A stretch of DNA of 24,353 nt from contig CAZKXF010000001.1 of the NCBI GenBank assembly GCA_964556805.1, forward strand, positions 1-24,353, given 5' to 3'. The stretch comes from an uncultured Candidatus Saccharibacteria bacterium. Lineage in GTDB: Bacteria; Patescibacteriota; Minisyncoccia; Phycocordibacterales; UBA918. This document shows, in pieces, positions 8,030 through 18,099 of the stretch; within the stretch, counting starts at the first letter, position 1, and every line of letters starts with the position of its first letter. The translations under genes were made by a program, and so were the position numbers. Below the pieces are notes generated by a model. The model was given only the letters and a program-made list of their open reading frames with translations, ran no database searches and had not been told where the DNA came from.

Positions 8030-9067
8030 TTATCGGATGTCGACGTTCGTAGAGAATCGGTTATTGGCAGTGCGGGTATCATCGCCGCCCGTCGCGCGTA
8101 CCTCGATGCGCTCGTCGCGATCGGACACGTTGTCAAACTGCAGGGTGATGATCTGGCGCTCGTTCGGTCGGAGACCATCCTGGCGCGATGAACTGAAGGT
8201 AAACGACGGGTCGGTAGGGAGCTCGGCGCTGAAGTACCACTCGCTTGAGGTCTTGGTACCGACGTTGCGAACCGCAAACTGCAGTGCCCCGCGCTCGCCT
8301 TCTTCGAGGTACGAGCGTTTCGTGAAGCGGTTGCCGCTGAGGGTGCCCACGCCGAGGAAGGTAACCTCGAGGTCACTGTAGCCGTTCGGATTGGAGACGG
8401 GGTACTCGGTGACCACGGTCGGCACGGTAATGTAGCCGCCTACCGGTCCCCGGCCGCCCTGGCTGCCGCCTGTTTGCGGTGCGGGCTCCTCGTTTGCTCC
8501 GCTCCCAGGAGCGGGTGAGCCGCCGGTAGTAGGTCGGTTTTCAGAGATGTCGGGGTTGACGAGGGTGATGAGGGCGCTGCGCTCGAACGAAAGATCCTTC
8601 TTATCCGCTGCAAAGCGCACGGTGTAGCGCACGTCGGTGAAGCGGTTCTTCTCCGATTCGAAGGTCACCTGCGTTCGATTCTCGTCTGCAGGCAACGTCA
8701 CCTCACTGTCACAGTCGATAGAGACGGTTGCTCCGTTGGCCCGGCGAATCTCTGCAGAGATTCCTTCGGCACACTCGTAGGAGAAGGTATACTCGCCCTC
8801 GGTGCGCAAGAGAGTCCACGAGAGCGTGATCGGTTCTCCGCTGTTGACGATGCTCTTGTCGGTTGCAACGGTAAACTCAGATTCCTCACCGCTGCGGAGA
8901 TTCTCCGCGATAGAAGCAAGCGTGCTGAACGCTGAAGGGAGGAGGCGTACGGCCTGTACGGCAAGCCATACGGCGAGCACCAGCCCTACAATAAAGCCAA
9001 TAATTGCGAGCGTTTTAATAATCGCGTTCTTTGTGTCGTTTCCGGTCGACTGATGCATATCTGGCAT
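8030..9067 (-). CDS. Membrane-anchored surface protein with Ig-like/CARDB-like domains
   Basis: 345 aa; N-terminal TM (LAIIGFIVGLVLAVWLAV), beta-sandwich-like region, Gly/Pro linker, C-terminal DLEV...FAVRNVG...NNRF pattern resembling CARDB. Domain call is by motif resemblance only. Confidence 0.7.
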   Translation of the reverse strand: MPDMHQSTGNDTKNAIIKTLAIIGFIVGLVLAVWLAVQAVRLLPSAFSTLASIAENLRSGEESEFTVATDKSIVNSGEPITLSWTLLRTEGEYTFSYECAEGISAEIRRANGATVSIDCDSEVTLPADENRTQVTFESEKNRFTDVRYTVRFAADKKDLSFERSALITLVNPDISENRPTTGGSPAPGSGANEEPAPQTGGSQGGRGPVGGYITVPTVVTEYPVSNPNGYSDLEVTFLGVGTLSGNRFTKRSYLEEGERGALQFAVRNVGTKTSSEWYFSAELPTDPSFTFSSSRQDGLRPNERQIITLQFDNVSDRDERIEVRATGGDDTRTANNRFSTNVDIR

Positions 9068-9204: not shown

Positions 9205-9846
9205 ATGCCGTACGTACCCCAGCAGGACATGTTTGATCGCATCCTTGAGCGGAAAGGGGCCTTTTTTGTGGTCTTTTTCTTTGTCTTTATGGCGACCTAC
9301 GGTGTACTCTACGCGATCGATTTCGTACCTGAGGCGCCTGCAGCGGCGGAGCCTGTTGTTGAGGTGATCGCCCAGGAGGAGCCTGCAGTAGTAGAGGAGA
9401 CGCGCTTTCCGTACCCTGAACGCATCATTATCGATTCGCTCGATCGCGAGGTGGTAGTGCAGAACCCCCAGAGTCGTACGGTGAAAGATCTCGATGCCGC
9501 TCTCCTGAAAGGCGTTGTTCGCCATCCCGATTCTGCCGATTTCGCCGATAAGGGTAACATCCTCCTCTTTGGACACTCGAGCGGCCTACCGACGGTATTC
9601 AACCAGAACTTTAAGGCATTCAATGGTATTCAGCACCTCGTGTGGGGCGACACCATTCGTCTGCAGTCTGCAGACACCGAGTACGTCTACCGCGTGCAGC
9701 GCGTGTACAAGGTGAAGGCAAGCGAAGCGGATGTGGCACTCGACAACAGCGCGCCGCGCCTCACGCTCATCACCTGCAACTCCTTTGGCACCAAGGACGA
9801 TCGTTTTGTCGTTGAGGCCGATCTCATCGAGACCCGCCCGCTCTAA
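9205..9846 (+). CDS. Sortase
   Basis: 213 aa; N-terminal TM anchor and the His-Cys-Arg triad in canonical order: FGHSS, LTLITC, DDRFVVEA. Class not assignable by eye. Confidence 0.88.
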   Translation: MPYVPQQDMFDRILERKGAFFVVFFFVFMATYGVLYAIDFVPEAPAAAEPVVEVIAQEEPAVVEETRFPYPERIIIDSLDREVVVQNPQSRTVKDLDAALLKGVVRHPDSADFADKGNILLFGHSSGLPTVFNQNFKAFNGIQHLVWGDTIRLQSADTEYVYRVQRVYKVKASEADVALDNSAPRLTLITCNSFGTKDDRFVVEADLIETRPL

Positions 9847-9891
9847 CCGCCTACGCGCACCGCGTATACGCGCGTGCTAGCATACAAAGCA

Positions 9892-11133
9892 ATGCCTAAG
9901 CTCACGAAGCGAATGCGTATAGTTCTGCTCACGATCGTGGCGCTCGTTGTGCTTTGCACTCTAGGGCTCTTTGTCGTCGGCGCACTCATTGCGCGGGAAA
10001 AAATCTGCATCGCACGGACTGGGGTCGAGCCGCCGCAGAAGCATTTTGATGATCCGTCGTCTTTTGGGGCGTTGGCAGGCGAGATTGAGAAGCGAGCGTT
10101 GGCGTCGCTCGTGGGACAGTTTGATACCACCACAGGTTTCTTTATCTACCTTGCAAACCCGAACGGCACCGTAGCATATGAGAACAACGACATCCGGCAG
10201 CTCTTGGCGTCGCGCAGCTTAGCGCTCGCAAGCAGGGAAGACGAATCGCTCTACGCGCTCCATACGCAGAACCTCGAGTCGATTATGGAGGCATGGTACC
10301 GAGAAGAGAACGGGCGGGGGTACGTATGGGTCGACGAAAAATCAAAGCTCGGCGCAAACGCACTCTTGCTGCGACTCATCGTCGCAAGTCCTGCGTTTGA
10401 AACGTACCAACCGCAGGCGCGTGCACTCGTGCGAGGCATCGAGTCGCTCGTTACCCCTGAAGGCGCCTTCCGGCCCTGGTACAAGGAGCCATCGTATAAG
10501 TACGATGCCGACTACCTTCTGACGTTCTACTCGGGCGAGGCGCTCTTGGCGCTCTTCGAGTACGCCGAGAAAACCGGAGATGCTCGCGTATTCTCGCTCG
10601 CTTCCCGCATACAAGATACGTACGTCGAGAAGTACGCAACGCGCATCGATGAAAACTACTACCCGGCGTATGTGCCCTGGCACACTCAGTCTCTTTAAAA
10701 GCTATACGAAGCAACGGGGTATATGATTTTCGCGGAGGCGATCTTCATGATGAACGACCGGGTGCTCGAGCTCCAGGACACAGAGCGTTTCGTCGGCCGT
10801 TTCTACAATCCCGATACGCCGCACTACGGCTCACCACATGGTTCCTCCGATGCGGTGTACACCGAAGGGCTCGCGTATGCCTATGAAATAGCACTTAGAG
10901 AAGGGGATACGGAGCGCTCAGAGATATACGAGCGGGCAATTGTGCTTGGCGTGCATAATCTCTCTCGATTGCAGTACGAGCCGCGCTTTTGGATACTCGA
11001 TGCGAGGGAAGCGGCAGATCGTCTTGAGGGCGGTATCATGACGCACCTCTGTAATCGATCGGTCCGCATCGACACCACCGCACACACCCTTGATGCACTA
11101 GCTAAAATAACGGCTCTGTGGAGCGCTCAGTAG
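9892..11133 (+). pseudogene. Membrane-anchored exported protein, possibly (alpha/alpha)6 six-hairpin fold, interrupted by an in-frame TAA at 10696-10698
   Basis: ORFs 9874-10698 and 10723-11133 share one frame and read through as PWHTQSL*KLYEATGYMIFAEAIFMMND. N-terminal TM; helical motifs FYSGEALLAL, SDAVYTEGL, VRIDTTAH. Fold assignment is tentative. Confidence 0.65.
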
Positions 11134-11146
11134 GCAAGCGGTGCTA

Positions 11147-11174
11147 TTGACAAAATAGTGTTTTCGTGTATAAT
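11147..11174 (+). promoter_or_regulatory. Consensus sigma70 promoter of the 11234-12858 gene pair
   Basis: TTGACA-N16-TATAAT; a leader hairpin TGATCCT-CGAC-AGGATCA follows at 11186-11203 and SD GAGGTG at 11223-11228. Confidence 0.8.
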
Positions 11175-11233
11175 TGTAGATAGAGTGATCCTCGACAGGA
11201 TCAGATAATGCAACCGCAACACGAGGTGCTCAG

Positions 11234-12211
11234 ATGCCGAAGACCCTGTTTGCCGCGCTTGTCGTGTTCGTGCTTTTCGCGAATTACGACATCAACGCTC
11301 AGCAGCGCGATAATGCGCCGCTGCAGCTCGGCCTGCAGCCGCCTGTCTCCCTGAAGCAGCGTCCGTCGACCAGTGCGTCGGGAACTTTCTTCTGGGGGCA
11401 GGACTTCCTTGCCAACCCGACCGAGCCCGTACGCCAGTACGTGCCAGTTGATCCGGCCAAAATGCCGGTGGATTGGGATCCGCGCTCCGATAAGGTGCGG
11501 ATGCTCATGGCGACGCTCAACGCGTCCATTTGCCCGCAGGGAACGAACTTCATTAACTGCTGGCAGATGTCGCCGCCGCATCCGGTCAACCCGCTGCGTC
11601 GGGCAGACTGGATGGAGGTGATGGCTATCTTCTACGAGGAGAACGGAACGATCACTAACCGTATTACGCAGGGCAAGCTGCCCCGCGACTATGGCCGCGA
11701 GCTCTTCGAGGCGAGCAAGGACCCCCGGTCCGGTGTCGTTCGGGCCGACTGCGATACTGCCTGGTTTGAGTTCACCAATATCAAGCCGGGTATGCCGCTC
11801 GGGCCGTACCCGATCGTCAACTGGGGCAACCAGCTGCGTGGATCGGAGTTCATCGACACCGTTCCGCGGCCGGAGAGCAAGCCGGGCTACGGCACGCACC
11901 AGATCATGGTAGATGTCTATCGCGGCCAGGTGCGGATCGCGCTACCGGAGGTCATTTTCACCGAGTGGTCGGCAAACCCGATCGCGCGCGTGGATGCTTT
12001 CCACAGCCGGCGCGCACTGCAGAGCCAGCGACTCCCGAAAGGAGCACCTGGACTCTACACCATCCCCGACAACGAGGACCGCGGCTACGAGAACGACTTC
12101 CGCCGCGCTCGCGCGACGGGACAGCTTCGCCTCGCAGTCCTTGTCAAGAAGGGCGAATGCCCCAGCTTCGACTATGCACGTTACCTGCAGAAGCAACCCG
12201 TAGGAGGATGA
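11234..12211 (+). CDS. Hypothetical secreted protein (Sec-type signal peptide)
   Basis: 325 aa; MPKTLFAALVVFVLFANYDINA signal-like N-terminus, SD present, four Cys; no family recognised. Confidence 0.75.
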   Translation: MPKTLFAALVVFVLFANYDINAQQRDNAPLQLGLQPPVSLKQRPSTSASGTFFWGQDFLANPTEPVRQYVPVDPAKMPVDWDPRSDKVRMLMATLNASICPQGTNFINCWQMSPPHPVNPLRRADWMEVMAIFYEENGTITNRITQGKLPRDYGRELFEASKDPRSGVVRADCDTAWFEFTNIKPGMPLGPYPIVNWGNQLRGSEFIDTVPRPESKPGYGTHQIMVDVYRGQVRIALPEVIFTEWSANPIARVDAFHSRRALQSQRLPKGAPGLYTIPDNEDRGYENDFRRARATGQLRLAVLVKKGECPSFDYARYLQKQPVGG

Positions 12212-12213
12212 GC

Positions 12214-12858
12214 ATGGATTACCACAGACGGAAGTTCCTGCAGGTCAGCGGTGCAGCGATCCTCGTAACGATCGCTGCACCGCTCGTGCATGCAGCCGAG
12301 GAAACGGTCCACGTGTGGCGTGGGCCGGTCATGGGCAGCGAGCCTTTCATCAAGCCGGCGGAGTTCGAACAGTGGGGGCCGAGCGAGGTGAAAATCCGCT
12401 CGGCCATCGACCAGCTGTCGGAGGAAGCCCTCCGACATGTCTGGAAGAAGCCGCCGGAAGAGCGAGCACAGCTTGCTGCGCAGATAAGGGAGGACAAGCA
12501 GCAGTTCCACGACGAGTTGCCGCGACTCCGAGAGCAGAAGCAGATCCTTCTCGACCGCAAGACTCCCATTCCTAAAGGGTGTCAGATCGAGGAGATGCAG
12601 CAGGGAGAGCTCTTCTTCGCCCAGCTGTATGCTGGCGGTCGGATGCTGCGCAACGTCGTCGCCGATCTGCGCGGGCTTCCAGAGAACATCTCGAACCGGG
12701 AGTTCGTGATGCTCGGCAAGGCCATGCGTCAGGTCATACCCGGGGTCTGCAAAAACTGCGGGTTTCAGATCGTCGAGAACCAAACCTCGGCGATCTGCGT
12801 GCCCATTCCGACCGGCCCGAACGTTCGGACGGTCGCAGAGGGCTTGCGGCGGGCCTGA
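12214..12858 (+). CDS. Hypothetical protein with twin-arginine (Tat-type) signal peptide
   Basis: AGGAGG (12202-12207) lies 6 nt before ATG 12214 (alternative ATG 12208 overlaps the upstream TGA). MDYHRRKFLQVSGAAILVTIAAPLVHA matches RRxFL + h-region + AxA-like site; CKNC near the C-terminus. Confidence 0.75.
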   Translation: MDYHRRKFLQVSGAAILVTIAAPLVHAAEETVHVWRGPVMGSEPFIKPAEFEQWGPSEVKIRSAIDQLSEEALRHVWKKPPEERAQLAAQIREDKQQFHDELPRLREQKQILLDRKTPIPKGCQIEEMQQGELFFAQLYAGGRMLRNVVADLRGLPENISNREFVMLGKAMRQVIPGVCKNCGFQIVENQTSAICVPIPTGPNVRTVAEGLRRA

Positions 12859-12901
12859 TTCTGTAAACCTAGACAAAAGGGAAGGGAGGTGTAGTATCTC
12901 G

Positions 12902-12935
12902 ACAGGGGGATCGCGCAAGCGAACCCCCTGTTTTT
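12902..12935 (+). terminator. Intrinsic terminator
   Basis: ACAGGGGG-A-TCGC-GCAA-GCGA-A-CCCCCTGT followed by T tract; GNRA loop. Confidence 0.85.
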
Positions 12936-12941
12936 AATGTA

Positions 12942-12969
12942 TTGACAAAATATTATTTTGTGCTATGCT
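12942..12969 (+). promoter_or_regulatory. Sigma70 promoter with overlapping palindrome (candidate operator)
   Basis: TTGACA-N16-TATGCT with extended TGn; perfect 8-1-8 inverted repeat ACAAAATA-T-TATTTTGT at 12945-12961. Confidence 0.75.
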
Positions 12970-13074
12970 TGCACATAGGAAGAGGTATTGGCAGGGTGCC
13001 TTGAAATACTCTCCCAATACCTCTCTCTGAGTGCAGAGAGCGCTCTTCGACTCAACCAAAAGGAAGGAATCACC

Positions 13075-13824
13075 ATGCTCAACCCGATTCTCATCGCGAG
13101 CGCCTTGTGCGTCCTGTTGAATGCGTGCGGCGGCAACTCCGGCATGGTCTCTGGCCAGTCGGTCCCGGCGTCCCCGACGGTCGCCGCTTACAAGCCTGGC
13201 GACAAGGTTGTCTACAACGAGCAGATGGCCCTCCATCTCGAGCCCTTCCTGGCTCCCAACCTCCCGGTCACCCGGGCGATGTTGGAGGGCCGGGACAATC
13301 CGGTCATGCAGAAGAAGAAGGAGATTCGAGCGCGGGACGGGAAGGCTTCGACCTACAAGGAGGACTATCCCGAAGCAAGGGCGTACGACGTCTTTGACGC
13401 CATCGTGGTGCCGCAGTTCAAGCATCTCGGCGTGCATTTCCTGCCGGGCGGCCGGAACGGATGCGTCTTCGATGTCATCCTGCATGACGTCAATCCGGCA
13501 GCCTTCGGCCCGGTGATGGTGCTCGACAAGCACGATCGCTTCACGGGCGGCATGCTCACACCGCATCCGCACTCGTCGCGCAGCGTGCGCTACGAGAACC
13601 TCAAGATCATGGAGGCGGCGCCGATCGTGCTGCCGAAGGGTCGCGGTGTCTACGGGGAGAATCCGGCAGCGGAGTTCGTCGTGAAGGCAGGTTCGACCTG
13701 CCGGATAAAGAACCCCGGCTCGGACGGCAAGCACCTCATGGTGTCGATGCGGCATCGCCTCGACAACAAGGGGCAGCTCGTCGCCATTCTCATCGACGAG
13801 AGCGCGAGCCTCGCCAGCCAGTAG
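13075..13824 (+). CDS. Hypothetical lipoprotein
   Basis: 249 aa from ATG 13075 (SD AAGGAAGGA upstream); MLNPILIASALCVLLNAC-GGNSG has a lipobox-like LNAC followed by a Gly/Ser/Pro tether. Confidence 0.7.
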   Translation: MLNPILIASALCVLLNACGGNSGMVSGQSVPASPTVAAYKPGDKVVYNEQMALHLEPFLAPNLPVTRAMLEGRDNPVMQKKKEIRARDGKASTYKEDYPEARAYDVFDAIVVPQFKHLGVHFLPGGRNGCVFDVILHDVNPAAFGPVMVLDKHDRFTGGMLTPHPHSSRSVRYENLKIMEAAPIVLPKGRGVYGENPAAEFVVKAGSTCRIKNPGSDGKHLMVSMRHRLDNKGQLVAILIDESASLASQ

Positions 13825-13840
13825 GGTTCGGCTGAAGGAA

Positions 13841-13875
13841 GGGAAGCGAGCAGGAGGCTCGCTTCCCACCCCCTT
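13841..13875 (+). terminator. Terminator-like hairpin after the lipoprotein gene
   Basis: GGGAAGCGAGC-AGGAG-GCTCGCTTCCC (11 bp); the downstream T tract is displaced and imperfect. Confidence 0.6.
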
Positions 13876-14005
13876 ACTTTCTTTGGTTGTACTGAAAGAT
13901 TGTTGAGAAGCGTTATCGTGGCAATGTATGCATTGCCACTATGTGCTTCTTTGCAAACGCAAAGAGGGTGTAAGAATTATTAAATTTATTGGAGGTTATT
14001 ACAGT

Positions 14006-16546
14006 ATGAAATTTATTCAGGATACGCTCGCGTACGTGTCACTACGAAAGAAGCTGGTTGCGGCCGGCGTGTTTTTGGTGGTGCTCTACGTGGTAGCCGC
14101 TGCGGTCATTCCGTATGCTGACATCCACGTTTCATTCGACGACTCCGCTTCTGTTGCGCTCGCAATGGGGGGTGACGGCGATGGCGATGGTGACGGCGAT
14201 GGTGACGGCGATGGTGACGGCGATGGCGATGGTGACGGTACTGGCGGTACTGGTACCGACGGCGGCGGTGGCTGCTGTGGTGGAGACGATGGAGAAGGGG
14301 ACGGCGGTGGTGATGATGGTCCCGGCGAGGCACCTGGTCCAGATCCGGGCCCAGGACCCGGCCCAGGACCCGACACAAGTGGCGGTGATGGCGACGGAGA
14401 CGTTGTCTGTCCAGTGCCTGCTCCCGTAATCTCGGCAGTTGGTAACAAGACCGCAAAGGTTGGCCAGCCGTTCTCGCTCTCGCTCCAGTTCGGAGCAGTA
14501 GACAGCGTGAACGTAACCGGCCTGCCTTCCGGATTGCGCTACGACAGCCGACTCATTTCGGGCACTCCCACCTCAGCGGGTACCTTCACGGTACGCATCG
14601 CAGTTTCAAATGAGTGTGGTAGCGATGTGGAGACCTTCACGATTACCGTGAATGAAGATGTCTGTCCCGTACCTGCTCCGGTTATCTCAACCGTCGGCAA
14701 CAAGGCTGCGAAGGTTGGCCAGCCTTTCTCACTCTCGCTGCAGTTTGGCGCTGTCGACAGCGTGAACGTAACGGGGCTCCCGTCAGGTCTCTCGTACAAC
14801 AGCCGCGTGATCTCGGGCACTCCTACTTCAGTAGGCACCTTCACGGTACGTGTTGTTGTTGCAAACGAGTGTGGTACTGACACCGAAACGTTTACCATTA
14901 CGGTAAGCGAGGTGGTCTGTCCCGTACCTGCCCCTGTGATTTCGACGGTGGGTAACAAGACGGCGCGAGTCGGTCAGCCATTTACGCTCAACCTCCAGTT
15001 CGGAGCAGTCGACAGCGTGAACGTTACCGGACTCCCGTCAGGGCTCTCGTACAACAGCCGCGTGATTTCTGGTACGCCAACGGCTGCCGGAAATTCGACG
15101 GTTCGCATCGAGGTGGCCAACGAGTGTGGTACCGACACGGAAACCTTCACGATTACAGTGACGCAGATCGAAGACAAGAAGCCGTTCTGTGACCTTGCGG
15201 TGAACGCCGAGGCGCTCGAGCAGGGACAGAGCACTCGCGTCAGCTGGAACTCACAAAACGTCAATCGTGTCGTGATCACGGCAACCGACCGCAACGGTAC
15301 GCGTACCGTGCAGGATACGAACGCACTCTCCGGATCGTTCGTCGTAACGCCTGAGTTTGACACCACGTATAAGGGTGTCTTCTCGGGAGACTACGGCACG
15401 ATTGAGTGTTTGGACGCCGTCGTGGTAACCAAGAAGCCTGTCGACACACCATTCCGCTGCGATTACTTCAATGTATCGCCAAGCCGTGTCGATGAGGGCG
15501 ACAGCGTTCGCCTTGAGTGGGAGACTACCGGCGCAACGTCGGTATCGATCAACCAGGGCGTCGGCTCGGTATCACTCGATGGCACTACGAATGTACGCGT
15601 CTACGATGACACCACCTTCACCCTTACCGCACGTCGCGGCAGCGACACGGTTACCTGTTCAGACTTCGTCGACGTTGACGAAGATGATGATAAGCCGCGC
15701 AAAGACGCGCCGCGCTGCGAGTACTTCCGCGCATCAGACACGCGCATTACCGCAGGCCAGCGCGTTGAGCTGCGATGGCGCACCGATGATGGTCGCGAGA
15801 TCACCATCGAAGACGATCGCGGAAACGAAATCTTCGAGTCGCGTGATCGCGATGACGTAGAATCCGGATCGGTTAATGTCCGTCCGACCCGCGACACCCG
15901 CTACACCCTGACGGTGGAGAATGGTCGCGACGATGACGAGTGTACGGTACGCGTCGAGGTAGATGATCAGCGTGTCACGCTTATCACCGACCGCGATCGC
16001 CAGCCGCTCACCTCAATCTCACTGACGCAGATTCCGTACACCGGATTCGACGCAGGGCCGTTCCTCACCTCTCTCTTCTACACCCTTCTTGCTCTCTGGA
16101 GCGCCGCCATCGCCTACGTCCTCGTGATTAAGCGGGGTTCGGTGTTCGGCTTTGCGCTTCCCGGCAGCGGCCGCATCGTCAATGAGTCTGCGGTTGGTGC
16201 AATTCCTCATGCGGAGTACCAGGCGTATGCCGCTCCGGCAGCGGAGGCACCGGTTGCACCCGCCAACCTTCCGACCGGAAGCTACGGCGTGCCACGCTAC
16301 GAAGCTCCAGCTACTGAGATGACGGCAACCACTGACGCGCTCGGTGCGCACCTTGAGGCACACGCACACGCGCACAATGTGCTCCTCTCGAGCGATGCCA
16401 TTCGCCTCATCATTGGACAGGCCGATTCTGCAGAAGAGGAGATCGAACTCCTCGATGCGGTGATCGCACGCGCAAAAGAGGCATACCCACGTGAAGACGG
16501 CTGGGTAGTCCTCAACCGCGAGCGTATCGTAACGCTCTTCCAGTAG
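14006..16546 (+). CDS. Large Ig-repeat cell-surface protein with IPYTG sorting-like motif, TM helix and cytoplasmic tail
   Basis: 846 aa from ATG 14006 (GGAGGT at 13991-13996). N-terminal hydrophobic segment, Gly-Asp and Gly-Pro low complexity, three 85-aa putative-Ig (He_PIG-like, GLPSGL...ISGTPT) repeats, three further Cys-flanked beta-sandwich repeats, IPYTG at 16031-16045, TM + KR, then about 135 aa more. Confidence 0.85.
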   Translation: MKFIQDTLAYVSLRKKLVAAGVFLVVLYVVAAAVIPYADIHVSFDDSASVALAMGGDGDGDGDGDGDGDGDGDGDGDGTGGTGTDGGGGCCGGDDGEGDGGGDDGPGEAPGPDPGPGPGPGPDTSGGDGDGDVVCPVPAPVISAVGNKTAKVGQPFSLSLQFGAVDSVNVTGLPSGLRYDSRLISGTPTSAGTFTVRIAVSNECGSDVETFTITVNEDVCPVPAPVISTVGNKAAKVGQPFSLSLQFGAVDSVNVTGLPSGLSYNSRVISGTPTSVGTFTVRVVVANECGTDTETFTITVSEVVCPVPAPVISTVGNKTARVGQPFTLNLQFGAVDSVNVTGLPSGLSYNSRVISGTPTAAGNSTVRIEVANECGTDTETFTITVTQIEDKKPFCDLAVNAEALEQGQSTRVSWNSQNVNRVVITATDRNGTRTVQDTNALSGSFVVTPEFDTTYKGVFSGDYGTIECLDAVVVTKKPVDTPFRCDYFNVSPSRVDEGDSVRLEWETTGATSVSINQGVGSVSLDGTTNVRVYDDTTFTLTARRGSDTVTCSDFVDVDEDDDKPRKDAPRCEYFRASDTRITAGQRVELRWRTDDGREITIEDDRGNEIFESRDRDDVESGSVNVRPTRDTRYTLTVENGRDDDECTVRVEVDDQRVTLITDRDRQPLTSISLTQIPYTGFDAGPFLTSLFYTLLALWSAAIAYVLVIKRGSVFGFALPGSGRIVNESAVGAIPHAEYQAYAAPAAEAPVAPANLPTGSYGVPRYEAPATEMTATTDALGAHLEAHAHAHNVLLSSDAIRLIIGQADSAEEEIELLDAVIARAKEAYPREDGWVVLNRERIVTLFQ
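14171..14236 (+). repeat. (GGY GAY)11 hexamer repeat encoding (Gly-Asp)11
   Basis: Eleven GGTGAC/GGCGAT units, in frame. Confidence 0.9.
14405..15169 (+). repeat. Three tandem 255-bp intragenic repeats (Ig-like domains)
   Basis: Units start with GTC TGT CC (VCPVPAPVIS) at 14405, 14660 and 14915; high protein identity with many synonymous differences. Confidence 0.92.
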
Positions 16547-16650: not shown

Positions 16651-17901
16651 TTACAATCGCTCAGCCACTTCTTTGGTAAGTTTCTCTGCAAGGATTTCTA
16701 CCGAGAGCTGCGTCGAGCTACCATCTCGCGCCTCGAGCGTTACACTGCCTTCAGCAACTTCCTTGTCGCCGATGACGAGGAAGTAGGGAAGCTTGTCCTT
16801 CTTGGCGTTGCGGATCTTCTTGCCGAGCGACTCGTTGCTAGCGTCGAGCTCGGTGCGGATGTGCGCCGCTCTGAGCTTCGCTTCTACATCCTGTGCGTAG
16901 CTCAGATGTTTTTCCGATACCGGTAGTACCTTCACGTGTACCGGCGAAAGCCAGACGGGGAATGCACCGTTATAGTGCTCGATGAGGAATGCCATGACCC
17001 GCTCGATGGCACCGATCGAGGAGCGGTGTACGACGAATGCGCGTTTCTTAGAACCGTCTTCGCTCACGTAGGTGAGGTCAAATCGTTCCGGCATGCAGAA
17101 ATCGTACTGGACGGTAAAGGCGGTATCTTCCTTGCCGTTAACGTTCTTCATCTGGACATCGATTTTCGGCCCGTAGAATGCTGCTTCGTCCTTCGCCTCC
17201 TCAAAGGGGGATCCGCGGGATACGAGGTGCTTGCGGAGCAGGTCTTCCGCTTTTTCCCATGCCGCATCATTCGTGTAGTACTTCTCTGTATTTGTCCGAT
17301 CGCCAAGCGAGAGACGGAAACGGTAGTGTTCACCGAGTTTCAGCCCCAGTACGCCTGCCACGTACTCGATAAGGTCGAGGGCCGTGCCTACCTCGGCCAC
17401 CGCCTGCTCTTCGGACGCACACACGATGTGGGCGTCCGAGAGGCAGAAGGAGCGGACTCGCTGGAGACCCATGAGCTCGCCAGACTGCTCGTATCGGTAG
17501 AGTTTGGCGATCTCGGCAATACGCATCGGCAGCTCGCGGTAGCTGCGCGGCCGCGATAGAAAGAGTTAGAAGTGGTGCGGACAGGTCATTGGGCGCAACA
17601 TGAATTTTTCCTCGTCAATCTCTATCTGCGCGTACATCGAATCCTTGTAGTGCGGATAGTGGCCCGACTTGACGTAGAGATCGAGCTTAGCGATATCCGG
17701 CGTGCACACATGGAGGTACCCGCGCTTAATCTCTTCATCGATGATGAAACGCTCAAGTTCGCGCCGAATGGTTGCTCCTTTGGGCAGGAAGAGGGGCAGG
17801 CCTTTACCCACGGTATCCGAGAAGGTGAAGAGCTCGAGTTCGCGGCCGAGTCGCTTGTGGTCTCGCTCTTTGAGGTTTTCGTCAGGCACGTTGGTATTCA
17901 T
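16651..17901 (-). CDS. thrS: Threonine--tRNA ligase lacking N-terminal TGS/editing domains; frame interrupted by one TAA at 17566-17568
   Basis: Two same-frame ORFs join as RPMTCPHHF*LFLSRPRSYRELPMRIAE. Motifs RDHKRLG, YRYEQSGEL, RVRSF...DAH, FYGPKID, VHRSSIGAIER and a C-terminal anticodon-binding domain. Whether it is intact in vivo is unresolved. Confidence 0.93.
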
Positions 17902-17920
17902 GGGGTGATGTGGTGATGGT

Positions 17921-18099
17921 AAATAAAAAACGTCCGAGCAAAAATTCAATCTGCATTGAATTTTTGCTCGGACGATCTTTCGACCGCGGTTCCACCGAGC
18001 TTCCGCGCATACATATGTGCGCGACGCTTGTGCAGAGGTTGGGTGTGCGACACGCTCTCGTCAGAGCCCCCGGGTGGTAGCCGAGGCGATCCCTCCTGT
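17921..18099 (-). ncRNA. T-box riboswitch leader (transcriptional attenuator) of thrS
   Basis: Minus strand: antiterminator GCUCGG-[UGGAACC bulge]-GCGGUC-GAAA-GAUCGU-CCGAGC (18000-17966) overlaps a 20-bp terminator hairpin (17974-17931) followed by UUUUUUAUUU; Stem III-like hairpin CGCGCA..UGCGCG just upstream. Confidence 0.88.

Follow-up and report, generated by a model that had tools for sequence, protein, structure and literature searches.

A sortase and a putative adhesin with an internal IPYTG motif followed by a conserved, clamp-loader-like tail domain in an order of Patescibacteria

Introduction

The textbook definition of a cell wall sorting signal (PMC12445088) combines an LPXTG-like pentapeptide, an adjoining hydrophobic segment and basic residues with a position at the extreme C-terminus, where the protein ends in a short charged tail. 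In canonical LPXTG systems such as S. aureus SrtA and protein A or B. anthracis SrtA (2kw8), the substrate carries an N-terminal signal and, further on, a TG-terminated pentapeptide with an adjoining hydrophobic helix and basic residues at the inner face, and the housekeeping sortase is a membrane-anchored enzyme with a His-Cys-Arg triad and a TLxTC motif. Dedicated sortases, such as those of class GN (TIGR03784) and class D/E, are encoded side by side with a single substrate and the two genes are co-inherited. To our knowledge, the substrates of the class GN and class D/E systems have no cytoplasmic domain. In S. gordonii, the C-peptide that is left after sortase cleavage is sensed by the cell and has a function of its own (PMC11326707); this remnant is a short peptide and the sensing is carried out by a separate kinase (the SGO_1180 two-component system).

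An enrichment of sortases among CPR/Patescibacteria has been reported (PMC6744442). We found no paper that names a sortase substrate or signal from CPR/Patescibacteria, and the literature searched for VPYTG, IPYTG, LPYTG or sortase together with CPR, Patescibacteria or Parcubacteria held nothing relevant.

In this study we analysed a stretch of 24,353 nucleotides (the window) from an uncultured Candidatus Saccharibacteria bacterium of the order Phycocordibacterales (assembly GCA_964556805.1, contig CAZKXF010000001.1). The window encodes a sortase and a substrate that share with the canonical systems all of the features given above except the position of the signal, and that resemble the dedicated systems in lying on the same locus and being inherited together. 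The locus differs from canonical LPXTG systems in that the signal is L-x3-[VIL]PYTG with an invariant Tyr, and in that the protein runs on past the basic residues, by 136 aa here and by ~300 aa in most relatives, and ends in a folded module inferred to be cytoplasmic. Unlike a housekeeping sortase, the enzyme is paired with one adjacent substrate and falls below the NCBIfam class A-F cut-offs. Whereas the S. gordonii remnant is a short peptide, the remnant here would itself carry a folded domain of 70-200 aa.

The Sortase and Its Genomic Neighbourhood

The genes and elements of the locus are as follows.

8030 to 9067, minus strand: P0082, divergent neighbour, surface protein anchored by its N-terminus and containing two Ig-like domains (from the translation; no Pfam match)
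9205 to 9846, plus strand: "type 1" sortase, dedicated, 213 aa (PF04203 at 4e-20)
9874 to 13869, plus strand: genus-specific four-gene insertion between sortase and substrate (absent or present in relatives)
14006 to 16546, plus strand: substrate gene, 846 aa (likely start ATG 14006; frame open from 13928)

The preliminary description of this DNA had proposed an intact sortase with a His-Cys-Arg triad and a substrate gene about 4 kb downstream of it, and both proposals are borne out. The match of the sortase to PF04203 (72.3 bits, cut-off 26.6) is above the curated threshold, a membrane anchor is located at the N-terminus (aa 18-41), and His124, Cys191 (TLITC) and Arg200 align with the GHN, TLITC and RYVV segments of B. 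anthracis SrtA. This is the only sortase found in the genome, the assembly of which is 75% complete. The enzyme does not reach the cut-off of any NCBIfam class A-F model; the best match is to class D (38.8 bits, cut-off 165), followed by class E (36.5 bits, cut-off 160) and TIGR01076 (31.3 bits, cut-off 39.35). The match to TIGR03784, the class GN "marine" sortase, is weak (29.6 bits, cut-off 158), and the signal of that system is different from the one described here.

The sortase stop codon and the substrate start are separated by 4.16 kb because of the genus-specific insertion, and the two genes are adjacent in relatives. The insertion, which contains a gene interrupted by an in-frame TAA (10696-10698) and the genes of three exported proteins, is absent between sortase and substrate in the relatives G231, G158, G055 and G119. 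It is present in G301, a genome of the same genus, where its first gene is intact and encodes 434 aa. The four-gene insertion is not part of the sortase system. As a separate observation, the position of the locus between gyrB and thrS-dnaE is conserved across the order.

The Substrate and Its Sorting Motif

The ATG at 14006 is the likely start of the substrate gene since GGAGG is located 10 nt upstream of it, but residue numbers in the substrate are counted from 13928. The parts of the protein up to the inner membrane face are listed below.

14054 to 14119, plus strand: signal peptide or signal anchor, aa 43-64 (RKK followed by a hydrophobic core, read from the sequence)
14408 to 15127, plus strand: PKD/He_PIG-like repeat of ~85 aa in three almost identical copies, each enclosed by a Cys pair (PKD PF00801 at 3.7e-6; Cys spacing)
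15188 to 15943, plus strand: three membrane-proximal Ig-like domains with a TLxWxT motif (Cys pairs; homologue consensus)
16022 to 16045, plus strand: sorting motif L-T-Q-I-P-Y-T-G (invariance in homologues)
16055 to 16129, plus strand: transmembrane helix, aa 710-734 (helix pLDDT above 90; hydrophobic by sequence)
16130 to 16135, plus strand: Lys-Arg stop-transfer, aa 735-736, placed on the cytoplasmic side (read from the sequence)

The Cys pairs of the PKD/He_PIG-like repeats are 161/230, 246/315 and 331/400, with the PKD match at aa 260-326, and those of the membrane-proximal domains, which carry TLxWxT and are conserved in homologues, are 421/494, 511/577 and 597/672. The ectodomain repeats were identified by reading the sequence and from Cys spacing; a self-BLAST of the ectodomain returned only the identity match and no internal repeats. 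The substrate also carries a (Gly-Asp)n tract. All of the elements previously ascribed to this protein, namely six Ig-like domains, IPYTG, a hydrophobic helix and KR, are present in the open reading frame at 14006-16546, and the extension past KR, estimated earlier at about 135 aa, was counted as 136 residues.

The IPYTG motif (aa 702-706, nt 16031-16045) belongs to the only xPxTG-plus-TM candidate returned by a scan of the genome, and no second substrate or second copy of the module was found in this incomplete assembly. The stretch of the substrate at the sorting site, where cleavage is only predicted, is SLTQIPYTGFDAGP. Sortase is inferred to cut between T705 and G706. Of the two parts of the textbook definition, the first is fulfilled (an LPXTG-like pentapeptide, an adjoining hydrophobic segment and basic residues) but the second, an extreme C-terminal location with a short charged tail, is not, as 136 residues follow KR here and a median of 317 residues follow the motif Gly in family representatives. 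The NCBIfam LPXTG anchor-domain model gave no match in the substrate at E <= 0.01.

The motif is more than a chance occurrence because it is observed to be invariant in homologues, which is the conservation that the preliminary description required. [VIL]PYTG was present in 76 of 76 close homologues, in which L-x3-PYTG is invariant and the ectodomains are varied, and the motif was kept in 142 of 145 distant cluster representatives, these being the best of a family with 1554 clusters. When 24 modules from across the order were aligned (24-40% identity), L, P, Y, T and G were the only invariant columns. The motif is stricter than a typical LPXTG as Tyr is kept at position 3 and F-[DE]-A-G-P often follows the Gly. 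This strict conservation of Tyr and FDAGP could reflect a role other than, or beyond, sortase recognition.

It is inferred that the tail is cytoplasmic, and thus not extracytoplasmic, an outcome that would have counted against the original proposal. The inference rests on the N-terminal signal, on the basic residues past the helix (a mean of 2.5 K+R in the 15 aa after the helix versus 1.1 before it in 219 family members), on the Cys content (2.25 Cys per 100 aa in the ectodomains versus 0.30 in the tails) and on the kinship of the tail to a family of cytoplasmic proteins. Each computational check put forward with the original proposal spoke in its favour, and no refuting condition that can be computed was fulfilled.

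The Tail and Its Similarity to Clamp Loaders

The tail of the window protein consists of two parts.

16136 to 16324, plus strand: Ala/Pro-rich disordered linker with a semi-conserved "P-x-NLP" patch (pLDDT 48-64; alignment)
16325 to 16543, plus strand: cytoplasmic domain A, AAA+ lid-like alpha/beta fold with LLSSDA and YPxEDGW motifs (pLDDT 89-98; fold comparison)

In homologues, the same tail domain is again found after the motif and its membrane helix, which is the recurrence that the original proposal asked about. It was initially described as a compact, helical-looking domain; domain A (aa 800-872) is indeed compact, with a predicted pLDDT of 89-98. It has an AAA+ lid-like alpha/beta fold and represents the short form of a two-domain DnaX-like tail. 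In relatives a collar-like domain B follows domain A, whereas the window copy has the lid only. Domain B was found neither in the window protein nor in the rest of the 75%-complete assembly, and it has also been lost in about a third of the close homologues. The motifs LLSSDA and YPxEDGW are observed to be near-invariant in domain A at an overall identity of 25-40%.

The similarity of the tail to clamp loaders was observed in both folds and profiles. Domain A of the window protein gave VIA Z scores of 9.5-7.7 over 64-71 residues against the lids of Hda, DnaA III, clamp-loader delta and RuvB, and its top Foldseek match was the N-terminal domain of the Pol epsilon B-subunit; Z scores of 8-9.5 for the lid fold are in the range where VIA warns of a merely common arrangement. 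The A+B model from relatives (pLDDT 88) had only clamp loaders among its top ~40 Foldseek matches (best E 8e-4). A VIA Z of 10.5 was obtained for both domains of this tail, and domain B against the delta-prime collar gave a Z of 10.1 (rmsd 3.0 over 104 residues). By hhalign, the tail matched the lineage's own DnaX with 87% probability (P 4e-6; reversed control P 0.4) and the match covers DnaX residues 158-301. In profile comparison with DnaX, domain A of the window on its own did not reach significance (P 0.1). When the tail was scanned against Pfam and NCBIfam with permissive E-values, no family was found; the sub-threshold Pfam matches were to DNA_pol3_gamma3 and AAA_assoc_2, each in 2 of 24 members. 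A predicted complex of three copies of the A+B tail scored 0.00 without controls, which carries no weight in either direction on self-association of the tail.

By fold, domains A and B match the lid (II) and the collar (III) of DnaX (gamma/tau) and of delta/delta-prime, in the same chain order. In contrast to DnaX, the tail has no AAA+ ATPase domain I and no P-loop (Walker A) region, the alignment shows no conservation of the sensor-2 motif GSxRDA, a family-specific YPxEDGW insertion is present, and the domains are predicted to be tethered to the membrane behind an adhesin, with the collar missing from the window copy.

Distribution in the Order

The module profile matches 116 of the 301 genomes of the order, and a window-type (type-1) sortase orthologue is encoded in 113 of them. 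By hand count, 106 genomes have both, 10 have only the module, 7 have only the type-1 sortase and 178 have neither; any Pfam sortase was found in 111 of the 116 module genomes. The genome counts are not phylogenetically independent, and several of the module-only and sortase-only genomes are fragmented assemblies. The pairing of the genes is observed directly: the sortase gene is usually the one immediately upstream of the module, and in at least 37 genomes it is located 0.1-5.5 kb upstream on the same strand. All 20 module-adjacent sortases sampled scored 95-145 bits against the window enzyme, while most other sortases of the order scored <15 bits or did not match. These data link the module to a single subtype of sortase throughout the order. 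The idea that the module might recur throughout sortase-encoding CPR genomes did not hold; the system is restricted to one order, the module not being found at E <= 1e-5 in ~363 genomes from other orders and classes of the phylum.

A "split clamp loader," in which the tail would be the collar missing from short delta-prime-like proteins, was also considered. It was rejected as a correlate because these proteins (207-277 aa) are equally common in module-positive and module-negative genomes.

Proposed Model and Alternative Explanations

We consider it fairly probable that the locus encodes a lineage-specific system of three conserved genes, in which a dedicated sortase is accompanied by its one cognate adhesin and by the divergently encoded membrane protein with Ig-like domains. 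As inferred from the sequence, the adhesin would be exported by its N-terminal signal and the C-terminal helix would place L-x3-[VIL]PYTG just outside the bilayer. The neighbouring sortase would then most likely cut between Thr and Gly and move the six-domain ectodomain to an envelope acceptor, although both cleavage and acceptor are inferences. Peptidoglycan is the default candidate for the acceptor because the genome encodes three PBPs, which indicates that a wall is made. The remnant would consist of the membrane helix and the conserved cytoplasmic module derived from a DnaX-type lid without the ATPase domain, together with the DnaX-type collar in most relatives. This membrane-tethered remnant would most likely serve in protein docking or in assembly at the inner membrane face, a function that is inferred only.

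Cleavage at PYTG may also have an outcome other than wall anchoring: the substrate could be polymerised into a pilus-like fibre or ligated to P0082, or its ectodomain could be shed in a regulated way. This is unlikely, but one dedicated sortase with one substrate per genome is reminiscent of pilus or class GN-type systems, and P0082, which may be an accessory or acceptor, is a conserved neighbour of the sortase. Homologues of P0082 were found in 108 of the 301 genomes. In 104 of these a window-type sortase is also encoded, and the two genes are adjacent and divergent in nearly every case. However, the presence of PBPs makes peptidoglycan available as an acceptor, and the consensus of 45 ectodomain sequences contains no conserved pilin-motif Lys (YPKN-like), although, given how variable the heads are, this absence is not firm.

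Alternatively, the protein could be an uncleaved bitopic receptor, with an ectodomain that binds a host or surface ligand and a clamp-loader-like tail that signals inward. On this view PYTG would have a structural or docking role next to the membrane, and the sortase would act on it without catalysis or have other targets. The conservation of the motif, including Tyr and FDAGP, exceeds what a sortase usually needs, receptors typically have a large and conserved domain in the cytoplasm, and the tail is joined to the head in >1000 clusters. We nevertheless regard this explanation as distinctly unlikely. The catalytic His-Cys-Arg triad is intact in the window sortase, and all of the module-adjacent sortases sampled retain the Cys motif and Arg. 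Furthermore, the motif decays or vanishes exactly where the sortase is lost: there is no sortase at the syntenic site in G136, where the motif has decayed to APYIG, nor in G172, where the head is gone and only the TM plus tail is left. In G055, a VPYTG-TM protein has an 11-residue basic tail, that is, a canonical signal, and a separate headless TM-plus-tail gene adjoins the sortase, which argues that covalent linkage of head and tail is not needed.

These natural variants also bear on the tail in the three-gene system proposed above. Since the tail is kept after loss of head, motif and sortase, the remnant appears to be a functional unit in itself, and since headless forms exist, the tail can work without sortase processing, so that cleavage may be dispensable for its function. 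A more specific and speculative proposal, to which we give only a slim chance, is that the DnaX-like lid and collar are a clamp-loader mimic or dock that recruits or sequesters parts of the clamp loader or replisome (DnaX, delta-prime, beta clamp) at the membrane, after adhesin processing or during host engagement, coupling surface display or host attachment by this episymbiont to DNA replication. That the tail has no separate function, being a long spacer or gene-fusion fossil that merely provides a charged stop-transfer end, is very improbable despite the disordered, variable linker and the loss of domain B from some members, as its two signature motifs are near-invariant, G055 and G172 retain it in a headless gene of its own, and the matches to the module at E <= 1e-30 comprise 520 clusters.

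Significance

A layout with an internal IPYTG-TM and a conserved cytoplasmic domain was not found in any paper or curated family, and it departs from the textbook rule that the sorting signal is the end of the protein. The system supplies a defined signal, L-x3-[VIL]PYTG, a dedicated subtype of enzyme and, in each genome, a single cognate adhesin that is highly variable. The order is large and uncultured, and the adhesin offers a direct handle on the surface decoration, and probably the host attachment, of these ultra-small cells. If the adhesin is cleaved, two functional products would result, an adhesin linked to the wall and a cytoplasmic domain of clamp-loader origin that stays tethered to the membrane. 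Sortase processing could in that case also serve as a step in transmembrane signalling or in assembly.

The sortase locus

The window belongs to contig 1 of a Patescibacteria assembly of 557 kb that is 75% complete, and among named organisms a homologue search places the substrate closest to 'Candidatus Kaiserbacteria'. The preliminary description placed here a sortase and an IPYTG-helix-tail substrate, and its coordinates and features for both are correct. The locus comprises the following features.

8030-9067, minus strand: divergent Ig-domain neighbour, with homologues in 108 of 301 genomes of the order
9205-9846, plus strand: sortase (PF04203 match, 4e-20)
9874-13869: four-gene insertion splitting the sortase from the substrate, genus-specific and also present in the same-genus genome G301
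13928-16546, plus strand: substrate ORF, with a probable start at ATG 14006, preceded by GGAGG

In the sortase, which carries a membrane anchor at its N-terminus, His124, Cys191 of the TLITC motif and Arg200 are aligned to the catalytic positions of B. anthracis SrtA. The window enzyme scores under the cut-off of every NCBIfam class model and is the sole sortase detected in this incomplete genome. The substrate begins with a signal anchor and a (Gly-Asp)n tract, followed by an ectodomain of three near-identical PKD/He_PIG-like repeats and three more Ig-like domains; a Cys pair bounds each of the six. The sequence LTQIPYTG then leads into a hydrophobic helix of 25 residues and KR. Because the canonical sorting signal is defined as closing with a short charged tail (PMC12445088), this substrate, which runs 136 residues past KR, clearly departs from it in layout. 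After the signal anchor and before the first Ig-like repeat, positions 14170-14400 (ORF residues ~81-160) encode a long in-frame (Gly-Asp)n stretch followed by low-complexity Gly/Cys/Asp and (Pro-Gly)n sequence; varying repeat length in this tract could alter how far the stalk extends.

Across the order the syntenic locus consists of gyrB, the divergent Ig-domain membrane protein, the sortase, the substrate, thrS and dnaE, and less than 100 bp separates sortase and substrate in relatives. Within the insertion, 9874-11133 holds two ORFs (274 and 136 aa) in one frame, split by a single in-frame TAA at 10696-10698 and without a Pfam family match; the G301 counterpart is a single intact gene of 434 aa (L121 1174-2475). 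The interruption is a pseudogene, a sequencing error or a read-through. Three exported proteins of no known family, all common to G301, are encoded at 11234-13824 with Sec-type, twin-arginine-like and lipoprotein-like signals, respectively. Downstream, adjacent ORFs of 291 and 127 aa (16651-17949, minus strand) each match the one ~590-aa thrS of relatives, so thrS appears interrupted in this assembly.

Conservation of the PYTG module

We refer to the PYTG motif, the membrane helix and the tail C-terminal to it as the module. The preliminary description proposed looking for the tail behind [IVL]PYTG and a helix elsewhere, and it does recur: substrate residues 690-872 matched 76 homologues with differing ectodomains (DUF11 and others), and all 76 keep [VIL]PYTGF[DE]AGP, the helix and the tail domain, with PYTGL instead in one. 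In 24 modules aligned from across the order (24-40% identity), the only invariant columns are the L, P, Y, T and G of L-x3-PYTG. A profile search over 1.8 billion cluster representatives matched 1554 clusters at E <= 1e-3, of which 520 reach E <= 1e-30. PYTG is retained in 142 of the best 145 representatives, the exceptions being one PHTG variant and two truncated sequences, and the median length C-terminal to the Gly in the representatives is 317 residues. Among 371 genomes sampled across the phylum, all those in which the module was detected belong to the window's own order. Published work notes an enrichment of sortases in CPR (PMC6744442), and we found no description in the literature of CPR sortase substrates, the PYTG signal or the cytoplasmic extension.

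Structure and topology of the tail

The compact domain suggested after the helix was modelled with confidence. Residues 690-872 are predicted to form the helix, a disordered Ala/Pro linker and a 73-residue alpha/beta domain (domain A, pLDDT 89-98), whose structural neighbours are all AAA+ lids (Hda, DnaA III, clamp-loader delta and gamma, RuvB, Lon) or lid-like N-terminal domains of polymerase B subunits (VIA Z 9.5-7.7 over 64-71 residues; best Foldseek E-value 0.09). The window protein and its closest relative, in G302, have domain A only, and about two-thirds of homologues have a second domain of six helices (domain B). For an A+B model from a same-family genome (pLDDT 88), every one of the top ~40 Foldseek matches is a clamp-loader subunit, aligned over ~200 columns (best E 8e-4), and the VIA Z is 10.5 for both domains; the large rmsd of the pair is due to the flexible linker between them. 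Domain B alone matches the delta-prime collar (VIA Z 10.1, rmsd 3.0, 104 residues). A tail profile aligned with a same-lineage DnaX profile (tail 6-172 to DnaX 158-301) with 87% probability and P 4e-6, against P 0.4 for the reversed control, and the only recurrent Pfam matches, both sub-threshold, are DNA_pol3_gamma3 and AAA_assoc_2. Unlike DnaX, the tail lacks the ATPase domain, does not conserve the sensor-2 motif and has an inserted family-specific YPxEDGW element.

The delta-prime-like (PF13177) proteins of the order are only 207-277 aa (G231:C4:30879-31253, G086:C1:397382-397615, G010:C3:24104-24331 and others), seemingly too short for a full collar domain, and matches to the Pfam delta (HolA) model are no more than weak and fall mostly on DnaX itself. 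Clamp-loader composition in the order may be unusual.

A cytoplasmic location of the tail, as first proposed, is inferred rather than measured and is supported by four lines of evidence: an N-terminal signal with just one helix after it, a K/R content of 2.5 after the helix and 1.1 before it, a Cys content ten-fold below that of the Cys-paired ectodomains, and kinship to a cytoplasmic protein family.

Association of the module with a sortase subtype

Among 301 genomes of the order, the module profile matches 116, a Pfam sortase of any kind occurs in 138, and the window-type (type-1) sortase (E <= 1e-15, >= 79 bits) occurs in 113, almost always as a single copy. By hand count from the tables, 106 genomes have both module and type-1 sortase, 10 the module only, 7 the sortase only and 178 neither. 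One unpublished genome, G250, is included in these tallies, and no conclusion rests on it. The counts overstate independence because the species are related; despite this kinship, the presence/absence pattern changes state repeatedly from one family to another. At least 37 genomes encode the sortase 0.1-5.5 kb upstream of the module and on its strand, and the homologue of 8030-9067 nearly always adjoins the sortase, with 104 of its 108 genomes carrying type-1. All 20 module-adjacent sortases extracted score 95-145 bits against the window enzyme and share TL[ST]TCN[ST]FG...ER[YF]VV, whereas most other sortases of the order are of a different subtype (NLITCEG.W...RLVV) that scores below 15 bits or not at all. 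This second subtype occurs independently of the module in other genomes of the order (e.g., L071, L074 and L080), with up to three extra copies per genome.

Natural variants and proposed mechanism

Three genomes depart from the common arrangement. In G136 (92% complete) no sortase was found at the syntenic site or elsewhere in the genome, and the motif reads APYIG. G172 has no sortase, and its conserved site holds only a headless protein of membrane segments and tail A+B. G055 keeps the sortase beside a headless helix-A-B gene and encodes elsewhere a 605-aa protein with a C-terminal VPYTG, helix and basic tail of 11 residues, a textbook sorting signal. Together, these variants indicate that PYTG plus helix is the sortase signal, that motif integrity depends on a sortase being present, and that the membrane-tethered tail can be separated from the rest as a unit and is kept by itself. 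The head of the G136 APYIG protein (G136:C49:8819-9982; L036 4802-6001) resembles the divergent Ig-domain neighbour (26% identity over 152 aa), and a single gene there appears to join the head of the neighbour to the tail of the module.

Polymerisation of the head, or its ligation to a different acceptor (for example the conserved neighbour), is not excluded. The substrate could also be an uncleaved receptor, a reading disfavoured by the same three variants, which likewise speak against a functionless tail. Three PBP genes are encoded, so a wall exists, and the S. gordonii C-peptide sensed by a two-component kinase is a precedent for functional remnants (PMC11326707). The best reading, in which cleavage and attachment are inferred, is that a dedicated sortase would cut its single adhesin at T|G and join the head to the envelope, and the remnant would stay behind as a membrane-anchored docking module derived from a clamp loader.
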